From IMG/VR virus record IMGVR_UViG_2681813320_000023: a stretch of 10,882 bases of DNA. One strand, given 5' to 3'. The notes beneath the pieces were generated by a model. That model searched no databases. It worked only from the letters and a program-made list of their open reading frames with translations, and was not told where the DNA came from. A program made the translations under genes and the position numbers. Source of the stretch: a virus (Duplodnaviria > Heunggongvirae > Uroviricota > Caudoviricetes). Positions 1 to 10,882 of the stretch are shown here, piece after piece. Every line of letters begins with the position of its first letter. The first letter of the stretch is position 1.

Positions 1-1218
1 ATGAACAAACTGAGCGATACCTTGCTAAGGAAACTTCATGGTAAGCCAGCGGAGAAAAACACGTTTTATAGTGATGGCGGAAACCTGAGCGTGAAATATT
101 TAACATCAGGGAAATTGACCTGGTATTTCACATACAGGGCCGGAACGGGAAGGGAGACACGACCCGAACGCATTAAGCTGGGAAGTTATCCTGATCTGAG
201 CCTGAAAGCAGCCAGGGAAAAAGCCGCACAGTGTCGCACATGGCTGGCTGAGGGGAAAAATCCACGTCATGAGATGAATTACACCGTACAGGAAGCGTTA
301 AAGCCCGTAACGGTTGGCGATGCGCTCACCTACTGGCTTGAGTATTACGTAAAGGAAAACCGCGTGGATTATATCGCCCTGAAAAGGCGACTTAATAATC
401 ACGTAATACAGCAGATTGGTGCTATGCCGCTGGATAAATGCGAGCTACGGCACTGGCTGGCCTGTTTTGACCAGGTGGCAAAGCGAACGCCTGTTACTGC
501 CGGATTCGTGCTACAGGCGTGCAAACAGGCGCTTAAGTTCTGCCGTAGGCGGCGCTATGCAATCAGCAACGTTCTGGACGATCTGAACGTGGCGGACGTT
601 GGGAAAAAACCGGATATAAGCGAACGTGTCTTAAGTAACAAAGAACTTGGCGAATTATTGCAGGCACTGGACAAAAAAATATTTTCCCCTTACTACGTCG
701 CGTTAATCCGCCTCCTGATTGTCTTCGGAGCCAGGACGGTAGAACTGAGGCTATCGGAGATCGGGGAGTGGGATTTTACGGAAATGCTATGGACCGTTCC
801 GAAGGAGCACAGCAAAACGAAGGTCGCAATATTCCGGCCCATACCGGAAGCGATCCTGCCGTTCGTCACGCAGCTGGTGGAGCAGAACAGGCACACGGGC
901 TTATTGCTGGGGGAAGTGAAACAGGAGGCCAGCGTATCGCAGTATGGAAGATTAGCGCACAGGAGGCTTAATCATCCTCACTGGTCACTGCATGACATCC
1001 GGCGCACCTTTACAACCATGCTGAACGATTTAGGCGTTGATCCGCATGTCGTGGAGCAGCTTACAGGTCATCAGATGCCAGGAATGCAGCGAGTTTATAA
1101 TCATTCCCGTTATCTGGATGCTAAACGCAATGCGCTGGATATGTGGATGGAGCGGTTAGGGATACTGGCGGGAACACATGAAAACGTAACCACGCTACCA
1201 GTAGCCAGAAGAAAATAA
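1..1218 (+). CDS. int: Tyrosine recombinase, P4-family integrase (405 aa)
   Basis: ORF 1..1218, stop TAA 1216-1218. N-terminal arm-binding-like motif (LSDTLLRKL...YSDGGNLSVKY...WYFTYR). C-terminal catalytic signature HDIRRTFTT ... LTGHQ ... RVYNHSRY (HxxR box and tyrosine nucleophile region). Confidence 0.9.
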   Translation: MNKLSDTLLRKLHGKPAEKNTFYSDGGNLSVKYLTSGKLTWYFTYRAGTGRETRPERIKLGSYPDLSLKAAREKAAQCRTWLAEGKNPRHEMNYTVQEALKPVTVGDALTYWLEYYVKENRVDYIALKRRLNNHVIQQIGAMPLDKCELRHWLACFDQVAKRTPVTAGFVLQACKQALKFCRRRRYAISNVLDDLNVADVGKKPDISERVLSNKELGELLQALDKKIFSPYYVALIRLLIVFGARTVELRLSEIGEWDFTEMLWTVPKEHSKTKVAIFRPIPEAILPFVTQLVEQNRHTGLLLGEVKQEASVSQYGRLAHRRLNHPHWSLHDIRRTFTTMLNDLGVDPHVVEQLTGHQMPGMQRVYNHSRYLDAKRNALDMWMERLGILAGTHENVTTLPVARRK

Positions 1219-1266
1219 TTTTTTTCGTGTTTTTTCAGTATGCGCATACTGGATATGCGAACAGAT

Positions 1267-1310
1267 ACAACATGCAACAATGAGCAACAATGCGGAACAA
1301 CTACGAACAA
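1267..1310. repeat. Tandem degenerate 8-10 bp repeats (GCAACAATG / AGCAACAATG / CGGAACAACT / ACGAACAAG) in the int-alpA intergenic region
   Basis: Direct reading: acaacatgcaacaatgagcaacaatgcggaacaactacgaacaag. Lies in an AT-rich intergenic region upstream of alpA, so possibly a protein-binding array. Confidence 0.35.
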
Positions 1311-1592
1311 GAGACGAAAAAGTGTACGGATTTATAAGTGGCTGATTTTTAATGTGTTACTGGTTTTTTATACACTAGCGAATCACTCTTTAAATAGCGA
1401 GAAAAAAGGCATGAAACAATATTTTATGCTTTTGTATTAACATGAATTTAAATGATTTTATCCTGATTATTCCTGTTTCTGTAAACCATACGACCTCAAC
1501 ATTTGCCAACTCTGAATCATCCTGACACAATCAGACACATCCCAACGCAATAGAACACGAAATAACTCTTTAAGAAACGAAAGGGGGCAATA

Positions 1593-1781
1593 GTGTTAAG
1601 CACTGATCGGTTTATACGTGAAAAAGAATGCGAAAAGCTAACAGGCCTTAGCCGCTCATGCCGCTACCGCCTGGAAAAGGCCGGACAATTCCCATCACGT
1701 CGTAAACTTGGCGGTCGTTCCGTTGGCTGGTCTTTATCCGAGGTTCTGGCCTGGAAGGATAGCTGCAAGGCAGTTCATTAA
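1593..1781 (+). CDS. alpA: AlpA-family phage transcriptional regulator (62 aa, GTG start)
   Basis: GTG at 1593 preceded by RBS AAGGGGG (1581-1587). Protein has the AlpA-like pattern LTGLSRS.RYRLEKAGQFP..RKLGGRSVGW..SEVLAW. Sits directly downstream of int on the same strand, as in Gram-negative PICIs and CP4-57-like islands. Confidence 0.8.
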   Translation: MLSTDRFIREKECEKLTGLSRSCRYRLEKAGQFPSRRKLGGRSVGWSLSEVLAWKDSCKAVH

Positions 1782-1927
1782 TCACGCTGGCGGCACACAG
1801 CCGCCACACATCAATCATCTGAACACAGAGCTATAACCATGAAGATTGAATATACGCCAGAACGTGGGCGGGGATTCGTTCGCCCTGGTGAGACTGGAAA
1901 ACCACAAAATTGGGGTTTTTCAGGCAT

Positions 1928-1955
1928 AAAAAAAGCGGCCCCGAAATGGAGCCGC
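1928..1955 (-). terminator. Rho-independent terminator for the minus-strand operon (hairpin GCGGCCCC-gaaat-GGAGCCGC followed by a U-run on the minus strand)
   Basis: Plus strand reads aaaaaaa-gcggcccc-gaaat-ggagccgc. On the minus strand the hairpin is followed by seven T. It lies about 100 bp downstream of the minus-strand small ORF ending at 2051. Confidence 0.45.
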
Positions 1956-2050
1956 CTTTCTGAACAGATAACACGCTGCGCCGTTTGTGTGTGTGATCCC
2001 AAACATAAGCACGGGGATGATAGCCGCTATCAGGCTGGTGGGCAATGCAA

Positions 2051-2224
2051 TCAGTCTGGTTCAGTTCGTTGCCATACCTGCAATGAGCGCTTTTCCCTGT
2101 ACTCTTTAAGGAATTGCTCAAGGGCAAAAGCACATGGCGCGAATCTTTCTGATTCATGCTCTATCTTTCTGCGCCGTCTTTTCCGTGCTGGTGATAATGT
2201 TTTGGTCAATTCTTTATCGGTCAT
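2051..2224 (-). CDS. Hypothetical small basic protein (57 aa from MTDKEL; 62 aa if the upstream ATG at 2239 is used)
   Basis: Minus-strand ORF downstream of the RHH-like gene. AGGA lies 7 nt upstream of the ATG at 2224. Charged, helix-like composition with an RKRRRRK stretch. No recognisable family. Confidence 0.3.
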   Translation of the reverse strand: MTDKELTKTLSPARKRRRRKIEHESERFAPCAFALEQFLKEYREKRSLQVWQRTEPD

Positions 2225-9687: not shown

Positions 9688-9698
9688 CGTAGTACGCT

Positions 9699-9980
9699 AT
9701 GACTGAATCCGAAATACTGCGATTAATCCGCCGCGTCTCTGGAATCAGCCAGCAGGCTGACGAACAGACCACGCAGCCGGACAGCGTGACAGCCGAAAAC
9801 TATGCGCGTGTTGTTGCTGAGGTGATGCGCCGTGATGGTATAGAACTTAATGGCGTGGATATGCGCAACATACGAACCAGAGTTCTTGAGTTGCTGGCCT
9901 ACCGTCGCCGCGTGGAGATGTATCGGGAGAAGGAGAAAATAACGTACCACTGGAAGAAGCCGGAGCGGTTGCGGCGGTAA
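9699..9980 (+). CDS. Hypothetical protein (93 aa) downstream of the TerS-like gene
   Basis: ORF begins 12 bp after the TerS stop, with no strong RBS. Arg-rich, helix-like sequence. No recognisable family. Confidence 0.4.
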   Translation: MTESEILRLIRRVSGISQQADEQTTQPDSVTAENYARVVAEVMRRDGIELNGVDMRNIRTRVLELLAYRRRVEMYREKEKITYHWKKPERLRR

Positions 9981-10275
9981 CTGGTTGATATTCCCGACGG
10001 ACCAAAAATGGGTGGCTACATCCCTCGCTTCTGAGGACTGTTAACAAGCTGCCTGAAAGACAGTCACAAACTACGAAATTTTCGCAGTTTAATTAATGAT
10101 CAGCTTAATCGCTAACCCGCTGATATTTTCGGAAACCTCAATTTGAGGAAGTCGGCGCGGTAACTCGCTGAACTTTAAGCAAAGCGCAAAATTGCGCTTG
10201 CTGAATAATCATTATGATTACGCAGATGATTAAGGAATGACCGAAGGCGGAAATTCGCCTGTGGTTAATGGGGGA

Positions 10276-10538
10276 GTTGCAGATCTGCAACTCGACCATG
10301 AAACTACGGAAACTACCCGTAGTTTGGGTAGTAAGAGTAACACCCAGATTTTGGGTCTTACTCGTGATACCCAAATTTGGGGTATCAGTGGCAACCATAA
10401 CGACTTTCGTTACGGTTGATGCTTTTACCCCATTGGGGGAAAGGTATTACGATAATCATAACACCTACCGAACAGGTAAAGCCCACCAGCCTGATTAACG
10501 TTTAACCGGAAAAAAATTCCGGTAGGTGGGGATCCCCA
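10276..10538. repeat. Cluster of distinct palindromes and hairpins in non-coding DNA
   Basis: GTTGCAGATCTGCAAC (10276-10291, perfect 16 bp); CTACCC-7 nt-GGGTAG (10313-10331); nested hairpin AGTAAGA..ACCCA-gattt-TGGGT..TCTTACT (10330-10362); GATACCCAAATTTGGGGTATC (10366-10386); AACCATAACG-actttcgt/CGTTACGGTT (10393-10417); CCCCATTGGGG (10428-10438); ACCGGAA-aaaaa-TTCCGGT (10505-10523); TGGGGATCCCCA (10527-10538). Confidence 0.4.
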
Positions 10539-10649
10539 TATCGACATTAACGCCCCTCATGAATTGGTGCGCTTCCCCCTGGAAAGATGATCCGCCTGTA
10601 TATTTCTTGTGTCTATTTGTTCCACGTTGTTTCATACAGTGCACCGAAC

Positions 10650-10671
10650 GGTGTAGTCACTGGTGTAGTCA
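10650..10671. repeat. Tandem direct repeat GGTGTAGTCA x2 (period 12) near the right junction
   Basis: ggtgtagtca-ct-ggtgtagtca followed by TTTTG. Its position about 75 bp inside the presumed junction makes integrase or excisionase arm-type sites plausible. Confidence 0.3.
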
Positions 10672-10717
10672 TTTTGCGATTTTTGGCACTTTTTGTGGTG
10701 AAAATTATTTAATTAAA

Positions 10718-10882
10718 TCAACGTGTTATGTGAAATAAGTTATATATAACAGCAATAAATAATGCGAGAATAAACGGCACGATGATCTCGGCGGCAAAAC
10801 GGATACCGCAGAGAATAATGACCAGCATTCCCAACATAATGACGATTTTTAGGCCATTGAGCGTGATGATCGGCTTTGCCAT
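10718..10882 (-). pseudogene. tqsA: 5' fragment of a host AI-2E-family transporter gene (TqsA-like N-terminus), in-frame fusion ending in island-derived sequence (54 codons, start codon at window end)
   Basis: Minus-strand translation from the ATG at 10882-10880: [45 protein letters not shown], then IYNLFHITR and stop (TGA 10720-10718). The first ~45 residues match the remembered N-terminus of E. coli TqsA/YdgG; similarity is lost abruptly, as expected at an insertion junction. Not searched. Confidence 0.4.

Follow-up and report, generated by a model that had tools for sequence, protein, structure and literature searches.

A stretch of 10,882 nucleotides from a tailed-phage record (Caudoviricetes; IMG/VR IMGVR_UViG_2681813320_000023), which was analysed over its full length and which we call the window, very probably represents a Gram-negative phage-inducible chromosomal island (PICI) of the EcCICFT073 lineage, put by its P4-type integrase into codons 43-46 of the chromosomal gene tqsA. 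That level of confidence covers the whole explanation: that is, both the identity of the element as a PICI and a proposed life cycle whose steps are drawn, by homology, from EcCICFT073 and phage lambda. EcCICFT073, the prototype Gram-negative PICI (Fillol-Salom et al. 2018, 2019; PMC6092414, PMC6739421), requires int, alpA and pri, is induced through helper-triggered alpA, and is induced, cos-packaged and transferred by lambda, by phi80 and by a resident lambdoid prophage of strain CFT073 (PMC6092414). A preliminary description of the window, made from its letters without database searches, had called it a PICI-like satellite and not a degraded prophage; synteny with EcCICFT073, intact open reading frames (ORFs), low ratios of non-synonymous to synonymous substitution (dN/dS) and clean borders at three sites bear this out. 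The main outcome is to confirm that a phage satellite can be recognised from the raw letters without tools.

The window and EcCICFT073 have the same gene order from one end to the other: int, alpA, a minus-strand YlcI/YnfO gene, an Icd-like gene, a DUF4222 gene, pri, origin iterons, a small ORF and perC, followed by orf68, a gene for a lambda gpE-like capsid protein, a gene for a gpD-like decoration protein, a 137-amino-acid (aa) ORF, cos, a packaging-specificity gene, a 93-aa ORF and an attachment (att) arm. Over window positions 6390-9041 (perC, orf68 and the capsid, decoration and 137-aa genes) the two elements are 92% identical in nucleotide sequence, their cosN sites are the same lambda cosN, and their integrases are 91% identical in aa sequence, with homologous att arms. 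The encoded proteins are 99% (orf68), 94% (capsid), 98% (decoration), 92% (137-aa protein) and 86% (orf93) identical. The comparison with a characterised E. coli PICI that the preliminary description had proposed thus returned a match in both gene order and head-module sequence. The gene classes that it had listed (int, alpA, a ribbon-helix-helix (RHH)-like gene, a PerC-like gene, a primase-helicase, head and packaging genes) are present, intact and co-oriented, the RHH-like protein being the minus-strand YlcI/YnfO protein, for which fold matches are weak.

The window has the features by which Gram-negative PICIs are recognised: an integrase at one end and att repeats, an AlpA gene in the same orientation, pri with iterons, a capsid gene and a gene for a small terminase subunit (TerS) downstream of the origin, and a size of the order of 10-15 kb. 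SatelliteFinder defines a PICI by an integrase, AlpA, a primase-replicase, a capsid-morphogenesis gene and terS, and forbids tail, holin, portal and connector genes (PMC10085698); its 'PICI Type A', with all five components, comes in 97% of cases from E. coli (PMC10085698; Moura de Sousa et al. 2023). Judged from that definition, the window has five of the five core components, none of the forbidden ones, and an E. coli host, the closest relatives in a RefSeq search being in E. coli. Among the features of the EcCICFT073 sub-lineage, the head module (orf68-capsid-decoration-137 aa...orf93) is present, and Rpp and a pair of cos sites are absent. Where EcCICFT073 has RppA (144 aa), the window has, in the same slot and with no detectable similarity, a Nu1-type TerS (180 aa); EcCICFT073 has two inverted cos sites and a gene for a single-stranded DNA-binding protein (SSB), whereas the window has one cos site and no SSB gene; the Pri alleles are 48% identical in aa sequence and go with different iteron words; and the window, unlike EcCICFT073, carries in addition a C4 RNA and a second Icd-like ORF. 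As a TerS-type, single-cos, C4-bearing, tqsA-inserted PICI, the island is a member of an already known and common kind of satellite, a family on which descriptions appeared in 2018-2023 and which SatelliteFinder catalogues.

The same picture emerges from seven islands that we compared with the window (L001; L002, which is EcCICFT073 in CFT073; and L005-L009). Each is 10.6-11.5 kb long with clean chromosomal borders, and together they occupy three att sites (tqsA, roxA/phoQ and cspD/clpS). They differ by exchange of whole modules and not by decay: the integrase with its att site, the regulator alleles, Pri versus RepA, and TerS versus RppA. Their head-module proteins are 88-100% identical, and pairwise dN/dS values, given only where substitutions permit an estimate, are 0.13-0.16 (capsid), 0.00-0.15 (decoration), 0.12-0.13 (TerS), 0.06-0.19 (int), 0.06-0.19 (pri) and 0.18-0.45 (137-aa gene). 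The results establish that these genes are under purifying selection. No capsid or TerS more than 46% identical to those of the window is found among 50,697 phage records, which indicates that both are old lineages of satellites, as opposed to debris of recent prophages. The head module is present in 598 of 5,426 complete E. coli genomes, and the cosB-terS cassette in 768.

Boundaries and integration site

The features that define the ends of the island are as follows (positions are those of the window).

1-1218, plus strand: P4-type tyrosine integrase (Pfam Arm-DNA-bind_3 1.4e-18, Phage_integrase 2.8e-16; phrog_1)
10476-10745, no strand: attP arm, 89% identical to the right arm of EcCICFT073
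10746-10754, no strand: attR copy of the 9-bp core ATAACAGCA, from alignment of K-12 tqsA to both flanks of L015 and L001
10746-10882, minus strand: first 137 nt of chromosomal tqsA (AI-2 exporter), 100% identical to K-12 tqsA nt 1-137

Alignment of K-12 tqsA to L015 (a contig that matches the entire window) and to L001 (a complete genome) places the ends of the island exactly. A 9-bp direct repeat, ATAACAGCA, corresponding to tqsA nt 129-137, bounds the island on both sides: the left chromosomal flank runs to position 5769 of L015, the right flank starts at position 16702, the two overlap by 9 bp, and the same repeat delimits the island in L001. The island is 10,932 bp long plus one copy of the core; window 1-10745 is 98% of it, and the first 187 bp of the island precede the window, the attL copy of the core lying 188-196 nt upstream of window position 1. 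The preliminary description had placed the right junction after position 10745, which is exact, and had expected leftward extension to reveal attL and the shared direct repeat, as it did; its account of a near-complete element of about 10.7 kb stands, save for the 187 bp with the attL arm that lie outside the window.

Four contigs (L013-L016) match the entire window at 99.9% identity; L015 does so with four mismatches and no gaps (99.96%). To the left of the island lie the tqsA remnant tqsA', pntB, pntA, ydgH and ydgI, and to the right 'tqsA, mdtJ, mdtI and ydgD. In contigs 99.9% identical to the window, 5.7 kb on the left and 4.6 kb on the right are entirely chromosomal, with no portal, protease, large terminase (TerL), tail or lysis genes beside the island. 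Such genes, lying just outside the window and contiguous with it, were what the preliminary description had named as evidence for a full lambdoid prophage; housekeeping genes stand there on both sides instead.

These observations bear on the possibility that the window is what remains of a lambdoid prophage after deletion of most of its genes, with a few head genes retained by chance. The capsid, decoration, scaffold-like and TerS genes and the cos site do belong to lambda-family modules. Nonetheless, there are no pseudogenes or frameshifts, and all ORFs are full length relative to those of the other islands; dN/dS in the core genes is 0.06-0.19; the same gene set recurs, cleanly bounded, at three att sites that are unrelated to one another; integrase, regulator and replicon resemble those of P4 and are not lambdoid; no phage in the collection has head genes more than 46% identical, yet among islands they are 93-96% identical; the flanks are housekeeping genes; and ORF, Pfam and PHROG scans reveal no remnant of tail, lysis or lambdoid immunity genes. 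We conclude that a degraded prophage is hardly credible here.

Integration severs the start of tqsA from the remainder of the gene, and in L001 and L006 the two halves are annotated as pseudogenes. The split falls after about 45 codons and leaves a 54-aa ORF (window 10718-10882, minus strand). tqsA is among the genes whose integrity is controlled by integrative elements (Mageeney et al. 2020), and carriage of the island could alter export of a quorum signal. At least two satellite types, PICIs and capsid-forming PICIs (cf-PICIs), use the tqsA site. A tRNA gene as integration target was ruled out, the window having no tRNA gene. The integrase is 99% identical in aa sequence to the integrases of the tqsA-site islands L001 and L006, and relatives annotate four extra N-terminal codons. 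In EcCICFT073 the core is GGACATATTT and the site lies between roxA and phoQ, versus ATAACAGCA in tqsA for the window: that is, integrases 91% identical, with homologous att arms (window 10690-10760 versus L002 19144-19244 and 7690-7945), use different cores and different sites. Tandem GGTGTAGTCA words in the right arm, at 10650-10659 and 10662-10671, recur on the attL arm beside int in L001 and L015 and are plausibly arm-type integrase sites.

The cos site, small terminase and head genes

6903-7109, plus strand: 68-aa ORF, with a TGATG overlap (translational coupling) to the capsid gene (phrog_3255 8.4e-37)
7109-8164, plus strand: major capsid protein of the lambda gpE family (Pfam Phage_cap_E 9.6e-50)
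8176-8511, plus strand: head decoration protein of the lambda gpD family (Pfam HDPD 2.6e-17)
8524-8937, plus strand: 137-aa scaffold-like protein, followed by an intrinsic terminator at 8941-8968
8968-9144, plus strand: cos, with cosQ-like segment 8968-8999, cosN 9000-9011 and island-specific cosB 9012-9144, reaching the start of terS
9145-9687, plus strand: small terminase subunit, full-length Nu1 homologue of 180 aa (Pfam Phage_Nu1 2.3e-23)
9699-9980, plus strand: 93-aa ORF, the last gene in PICIs and cf-PICIs alike (phrog_1561 4.7e-56; present in all relatives)

The window contains a single cosN, at 9000-9011, and it is the 12-nt lambda cosN, GGGCGGCGACCT, without a mismatch. In alignment with lambda, phage 21 and relatives the flanks are near those of lambda on both sides (left, ACGGGTCCTTTCCGG...GTTACG; right, CGCGGTTTTTCGCTATTTATGA). 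The lambda-type cos site that the preliminary description had assigned to the element is thereby established. From about position 9034 to the start of terS the sequence bears no relation to lambda, and the cosB is therefore island-specific; it is shared only with islands that have the same TerS.

The TerS encoded beside this cosB aligns with residues 3-180 of the 181 residues of lambda Nu1 (35% identity, E 1e-34), and its best phage match is N15 gp1 (46%). A relationship to Rpp was considered and rejected: the comparison with RppA gave E 1.4, there was no match to RppC in the PDB, and tblastn found no match in EcCICFT073. The C-terminal part of lambda Nu1 binds gpA. Because the alignment of the island TerS with Nu1 includes this gpA-binding C-terminus, and because it has no similarity to RppA or RppC, we infer, by analogy with lambda, that the island TerS would recruit the TerL of the helper directly at the island cosB, without an Rpp-type heterodimer with the helper TerS. 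In EcCICFT073, RppA (c1503) retargets the helper TerS to the island's own cosB (PMC6739421). A complete lambda-type TerS in place of Rpp is a candidate for a second mechanism by which packaging is redirected in cos-type PICIs.

All seven relatives have two inverted cos sites, one with an island-type cosB beside terS or rppA, the other with a phage-like cosB. The second site has either been lost by the island in the window or was never present in it. In EcCICFT073, deletion of cos2 did not reduce transfer, which rose slightly with phi80 and significantly with lambda (PMC6092414). Several features of the paired sites were observed in the relatives. The second-site cosB comes close to phage 21 at the R3 and integration host factor (IHF) sites in L001 (15354-15500), L005 (12716-12570, minus strand) and L006, and is of other types in L002 and L008 (L002 18297-18150, minus strand) and in L007 and L009; its type hints at which helpers each island can additionally use through the helper's own TerS. 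The segment between the sites, including terS, is inverted in L001 (15311-16250) and L006 (11695-12634) relative to L005 (11819-12760), L007 and L009, suggesting that recombination between the cos repeats has inverted it. L008 (11771-12306) has two cos sites with no recognisable TerS or RppA ORF between them; its cassette may be defective, or packaging specificity may come from another gene.

Upstream of cos lies the head module. orf68 is 94-100% identical in aa sequence in seven of seven relatives (dN/dS 0.13). The capsid protein is 43% identical to lambda gpE; in the PDB it matches 3BQW ('putative capsid protein of prophage'; E 1.7e-226), from which few substitutions separate it across 350 residues; the decoration protein is 37% identical to lambda gpD. 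The preliminary description had recognised these two head genes and no others. Its statement that other structural, lysis and large terminase genes are missing holds: no portal, protease, large terminase, tail or lysis ORF is found in any frame of the window in the ORF map or in Pfam, PHROG and NCBIfam scans. Its list of head genes was, however, one short, the third being the scaffold-like gene at 8524-8937. By BLASTP, residues 49-134 of the 137-aa protein align with residues 115-196 of the 200 residues of the phage 21 scaffold gp6, an Nu3 homologue (38% identity, over the C-terminal 82 residues of the scaffold; E 3e-11), and the protein also aligns with residues 411-480 of the 498 residues of the Gifsy-1 protease/scaffold gpC (E 1e-8). 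A match to phrog_53, at the C-terminus of a head-protease family (7e-10), agrees with scaffold homology. Taken together, the homologies of the shell, decoration and 137-aa proteins indicate that the island encodes a shell, a decoration protein and a fragment corresponding to the tail end of a scaffold.

The 137-aa protein has no match in Pfam, NCBIfam or the PDB. BLASTP gave no significant match to lambda gpC, Nu3 or FI, and these were rejected as homologues; the label 'phage head-tail connector protein', given in some RefSeq records, is unsupported by the Pfam, NCBIfam and PDB searches and looks wrong. A single-sequence AlphaFold2 model was unusable (mean predicted local distance difference test score, pLDDT, 41). 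The family is narrow, with eight representatives in 1.84 billion proteins in a deep HMMER search. The sole phage record with a tblastn match to the protein was L010 (CP025907.1, 'Escherichia phage 204576'), positions 1-4000 of which have frameshifts, probably sequencing errors, throughout the protease, scaffold and capsid genes; the homology was then confirmed on phage 21 and Gifsy-1.

Although cosN is that of lambda and TerS, capsid, decoration and 137-aa proteins have counterparts in lambda, N15 and phage 21, the arrangement differs. The lambda order is cos-Nu1-A-W-B-C/Nu3-D-E, whereas the island order is E-D-scaffold tail-cos-TerS; the lambda genes A, W, B, C (protease), FI and FII have no counterparts in the island, and the cosB sites are unrelated. 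The preliminary description had pointed to a lambdoid helper, and the exact lambda cosN, the full-length Nu1 homologue, the phage-21-type scaffold homology and the phage-21-type cos relics in relatives support this. By analogy only, with no sequence relationship, the island resembles the Staphylococcus aureus pathogenicity islands (SaPIs) in having a capsid homologue, like Ccm of SaPIbov5, a protein that resembles the part of a helper scaffold by which it binds the capsid, like CpmB, and a TerS, which in SaPIs redirects the TerL of the helper; unlike the case of SaPI size redirection, nothing points to small capsids for the island. Part of the SaPI background is in PMC6092414.

Could the island build its own heads and take only tails from a helper, as cf-PICIs do? 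The capsid, decoration and scaffold-like proteins are encoded and under purifying selection, and a genuine cf-PICI (L019) occupies the same tqsA site in O157:H7, with a right end 99.7% identical to window 9981-10760 and preceded by an ORF of the length of orf93. Against this, no portal, prohead protease, head-tail adaptor or connector, HNH protein or large terminase is encoded in any frame, the capsid is of the lambda gpE type and unlike the capsid type annotated in L019, and the one label that would supply a head-tail connector, that on the 137-aa protein, is unsupported in the three databases searched. We consider a cf-PICI very improbable, and the EcCICFT073-type PICI remains our reading of the element.

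A further proposal concerns the role of the head module within such a PICI: namely, that it is a working 'shell kit' of gpE-like capsid protein, gpD-like decoration protein and, free-standing, the part of a phage-21-type scaffold that binds the capsid, with which the island would build or co-assemble its own shell on the portal and protease of the helper while its own TerS brings the helper TerL to the island cosB. We put this forward tentatively and think it rather unlikely. If true, it would make the island an intermediate between classical PICIs, which use all-phage heads, and cf-PICIs, and would explain strong purifying selection on genes that are dispensable with laboratory helpers; the genes might matter with natural helpers, with capsid-interrupted helpers, or against capsid-sensing defences. 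What is observed is that the module is strongly conserved and now appears to include a scaffold-tail homologue.

Replication and its control

2282-2587, minus strand: YlcI/YnfO-family protein of 101 aa, divergent from the replication operon, candidate repressor
2588-2774, no strand: divergent control region, in which TGTGATTCAG / GAATCACA words recur around a -35-like hexamer, TTGACC
2775-2972, plus strand: Icd-like ORF 1, 65 aa (NCBIfam phage_ICD_like 5.4e-18; phrog_1743/6196)
3003-3052, plus strand: upstream C4 target element, a1/b1 (Rfam RF03163, 46.8 bits; gathering 46.7)
3120-3207, plus strand: C4-type antisense RNA of the P1 c4 / P4 CI class (Rfam RF01695, 72.6 bits; gathering 45; full length)
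3259-3429, plus strand: Icd-like ORF 2, 56 aa (NCBIfam phage_ICD_like 1.6e-14)
3422-3742, plus strand: 106-aa ORF (phrog_15327 4.9e-71), 91-99% identical in aa sequence in relatives with the same primase allele
3749-4048, plus strand: DUF4222 protein, overlapping the primase start (Pfam DUF4222 1.4e-16)
4045-5862, plus strand: replication initiator of the D5-like primase/superfamily 3 (SF3) helicase family, Pri-Rep (Pfam D5_N, DUF5906, Pox_D5; phrog_864 DNA primase 9e-193)
5870-6100, no strand: replication origin directly 3' of the primase gene, with ten GGTGAACAG iterons in both orientations

The ten iterons lie within 5876-6098, nine of them exact and one with a single mismatch. Counted over the whole window with up to one mismatch, GGTGAACAG occurs 14 times against 2.06 expected, and none of 200 shuffles reaches 14; the iterons noted in the preliminary description are thus enriched. 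The functional origin of EcCICFT073 is likewise located 3' of pri (PMC6092414). The iteron word tracks the initiator allele: it is GGTGAACAG in L005, which has the same Pri, and GGTAGACAG in EcCICFT073, while L009, with a helicase of the RepA type, has AAAAGTGAGG. This co-variation of iteron and initiator is the behaviour expected of a cognate origin.

Upstream of pri, the operon contains a module that the preliminary description had missed: the regulatory genes it named are there, but its set was incomplete, lacking the C4 antisense RNA at 3120-3207 and two Icd-like ORFs. The C4 RNA can pair on either side of itself. The loop of its second hairpin, ..CCAGAUGA, is complementary to CATCTGG upstream (3053-3059) and to TCATCTGG downstream (3240-3247), and the junction sequence CUGUCAA is complementary to TTGACAG upstream (3038-3044) and downstream (3209-3215). 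All four matches together occur in none of 20,000 shuffles. This result is from counts of exact-complement words, which were used after RNAduplex, run on the whole C4 RNA against long flanks, failed to discriminate. Downstream, the loop target shares nucleotides with the GGGAG Shine-Dalgarno sequence of Icd-like ORF 2; an in-frame ATG at 3205 would make this ORF 74 aa long, and it overlaps the next gene by 8 nt in a chain that runs on into pri. Near 3063-3094, after the a1/b1 element, lies an isrK-like hairpin with a T-run, whose isrK score of 35.2 bits is below gathering.

Comparison of five C4 copies in four islands reveals that the stems are preserved through compensatory changes, that the loops differ, and that both targets have changed to match each time: the co-varied target words are AACCAAAG in L005, CACTAGAGA in L007, and ACACTGA and CACTACAGGA in L008. 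In P1/P7 heteroimmunity, likewise, loop and target co-vary between elements. The co-variation is strong comparative evidence, at the level of sequence, for a working antisense switch with several specificities. As an observation across the five copies, it implies several immunity specificities. C4 was not found at gathering score in EcCICFT073, L001, L006 or L009, which makes it an optional module; L001 lacks a 732-bp stretch (2664-3395) in which the C4 RNA and the second Icd-like ORF lie. The presence of C4 in PICIs is not new, since matches of the Rfam C4 and isrK profiles to several Gram-negative PICIs were noted by Mageeney et al. 2023; we have not found the co-variation described.

The arrangement is that of P1/P7 immI and P4 CI, in which a C4-family RNA lies between upstream and downstream pairs of complementary targets and the downstream target is at the ribosome-binding site of an Icd-like ORF translationally coupled to later genes. 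The downstream cargo in the island is a replication operon, as in P4, whereas in P1/P7 it is an antirepressor. By analogy with P1 c4-icd-ant and the P4 CI RNA, C4 would silence the replication operon, and it is a concrete candidate for the still-missing negative regulator of Gram-negative PICIs.

These likenesses raise the alternative of a P4-like satellite with a P2-type helper, to which we give next to no weight. A P4-type integrase, AlpA, an alpha-like D5/SF3 primase-helicase, an RNA of the CI/C4 class and Icd/Ash-like ORFs all fit a P4-like element, for which SatelliteFinder has a seven-component definition (PMC10085698). However, Pfam, PHROG and NCBIfam scans find no homologue of Psu, Sid, Delta or epsilon; the cos site, the Nu1-type TerS and the head genes are of lambda type; and int, alpA and primase do not by themselves separate P4-like satellites from PICIs in SatelliteFinder (PMC10085698), the features in question being shared with Gram-negative PICIs.

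For the island as a PICI, the following life cycle is proposed. In the quiescent state the island would be silent in the chromosome, with the replication operon (icd-like 1, C4, icd-like 2, orf106, DUF4222 gene and pri) probably repressed in two ways: by the divergent YlcI/YnfO protein, acting at the repeated operator words, and by C4 RNA pairing with the downstream targets, including the one that lies over the Shine-Dalgarno sequence of icd-like 2. That pairing would block translation and cause polarity on the translationally coupled genes downstream, as in P1 c4/icd/ant and with the P4 CI RNA. On the model of EcCICFT073, a lambdoid helper in lytic growth would turn on alpA, AlpA and Int would excise the island and AlpA would activate its expression, Pri-Rep would fire the GGTGAACAG iteron origin to yield concatemers, and the DNA would be packaged from cos as multimers. 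By lambda biology, the Nu1-type TerS would bind the island cosB that adjoins the lambda-identical cosN and, through its conserved C-terminal region, recruit the gpA-type TerL of the helper, so that island DNA would be cut and packaged instead of helper DNA. Four copies (about 43.8 kb, 90% of lambda) would fill a lambda-sized head; the E. coli model PICI is reported to be packaged as phage-length concatemers of roughly 45 kb (Mageeney et al. 2023). The helper would provide portal, protease, head-completion proteins, tail and lysis functions, and the capsid, decoration and scaffold-tail proteins of the island would presumably join or modify head assembly.

Several points weigh against this account. 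The life cycle proposed for this island is read from sequence, helper-dependent induction, packaging, high-frequency transfer and interference being known for the prototype EcCICFT073 only, and no helper has been identified for the island. What suggests a repressor role for the YlcI/YnfO protein is its position and a weak fold match. EcCICFT073 uses RppA with the helper TerS and has no TerS of its own, and the packaging step proposed here for TerS is therefore an extrapolation to a cos-type PICI from lambda and SaPI biology. In EcCICFT073, deletion of the capsid or decoration gene, or insertion of a marker in c1501, leaves transfer and interference intact (PMC6092414); because these homologues are dispensable in laboratory transfer, the head genes may have no role in mobilisation under laboratory conditions. 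Finally, neither a second, phage-type cos site nor an SSB gene is present in the window, although seven of seven relatives have both (the SSB gene, in L001, L002 and L005-L009, lying in most after orf83); this could mean reduced function.

The last point, together with the want of a known helper and the fact that tqsA remains interrupted in many strains, is what would be expected of a PICI by descent that has become domesticated or defective and can no longer be mobilised. We regard this as improbable. int, alpA, pri, the iterons, cos1 and terS are all intact; EcCICFT073 tolerates deletion of cos2; and the exact 605-aa primase product is recorded in 83 blocks of public assemblies. Of six contigs examined, four (L013-L016) share the layout at tqsA, and this points to recent spread, or if not to conservation. 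A mobilisable PICI of the EcCICFT073 lineage thus remains the preferred explanation.

Other features of the island

1219-1592, plus strand: AT-rich region between int and alpA (GC 0.40), with short tandem repeats at 1274-1300 and 1437-1460
1593-1781, plus strand: AlpA, which activates the island cycle and acts in excision (Pfam Phage_AlpA 5e-18; phrog_2790 excisionase/transcriptional regulator)
2051-2239, minus strand: 62-aa ORF (phrog_21027), 100% identical in aa sequence in L001, L002, L006 and L009
6150-6401, plus strand: 83-aa ORF (phrog_1231 8e-49)
6391-6663, plus strand: PerC-family regulator (Pfam PerC 7.8e-45), followed by an intrinsic terminator at 6669-6692
10225-10420, no strand: conserved, unannotated cluster of about six palindromes or hairpins (fold z -9.4 on the plus strand, -10.3 on the minus strand)

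By analogy with EcCICFT073, in which helper-dependent activation of alpA has been shown (PMC6092414), the region 1219-1592 is presumed to be the alpA promoter and the target of the helper signal. In the divergent control region (2588-2774) the putative operators and promoter are from a reading of the sequence by eye; an inverted repeat (I7) pairs 2277-2296 with 2630-2649. A model of the YlcI/YnfO protein has a helix pattern that fits an RHH domain plus a long helix, and fold searches with it gave weak matches. Two plus-strand ORFs, 1839-2972 (377 aa) and 2923-3429 (168 aa), were rejected as read-through artefacts across the minus-strand genes, the control region and the C4 RNA; in relatives, RefSeq annotates parts of them as pseudogenes or as over-long Icd-like proteins. 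PADLOC found no known defence system among ten small or uncharacterised proteins of the window.

A 25-nt motif, ATGAATRAAAAGGGAAARWTGCAAA, occurs twice in the window (6064-6088 and 9080-9104; none expected). Each copy lies 40-60 nt upstream of the start of an operon (orf83-perC and terS-orf93), and the motif is kept in the cosB of other TerS-type islands; it could be a shared promoter or regulator site.

The segment 10225-10420 folds far better than its shuffles on both strands, because it is a run of different palindromes. It has no match in Rfam, and exact-word scans of species-representative genomes returned nothing, or chance-level matches in unrelated metagenome-assembled genomes. Within E. 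coli it is present in 1,048 of 5,426 genomes, and an invariant core of 87 bp (about 10276-10362) persists in copies with diverged flanks. In the O157 cf-PICI L019, and also in L020, a 282-nt hypothetical ORF of the same length and position as orf93 precedes the same conserved segment. In every context examined, including the tqsA-site cf-PICI of O157:H7 and a PICI with a ClpP-capsid fusion, the segment lies directly downstream of an orf93 homologue.

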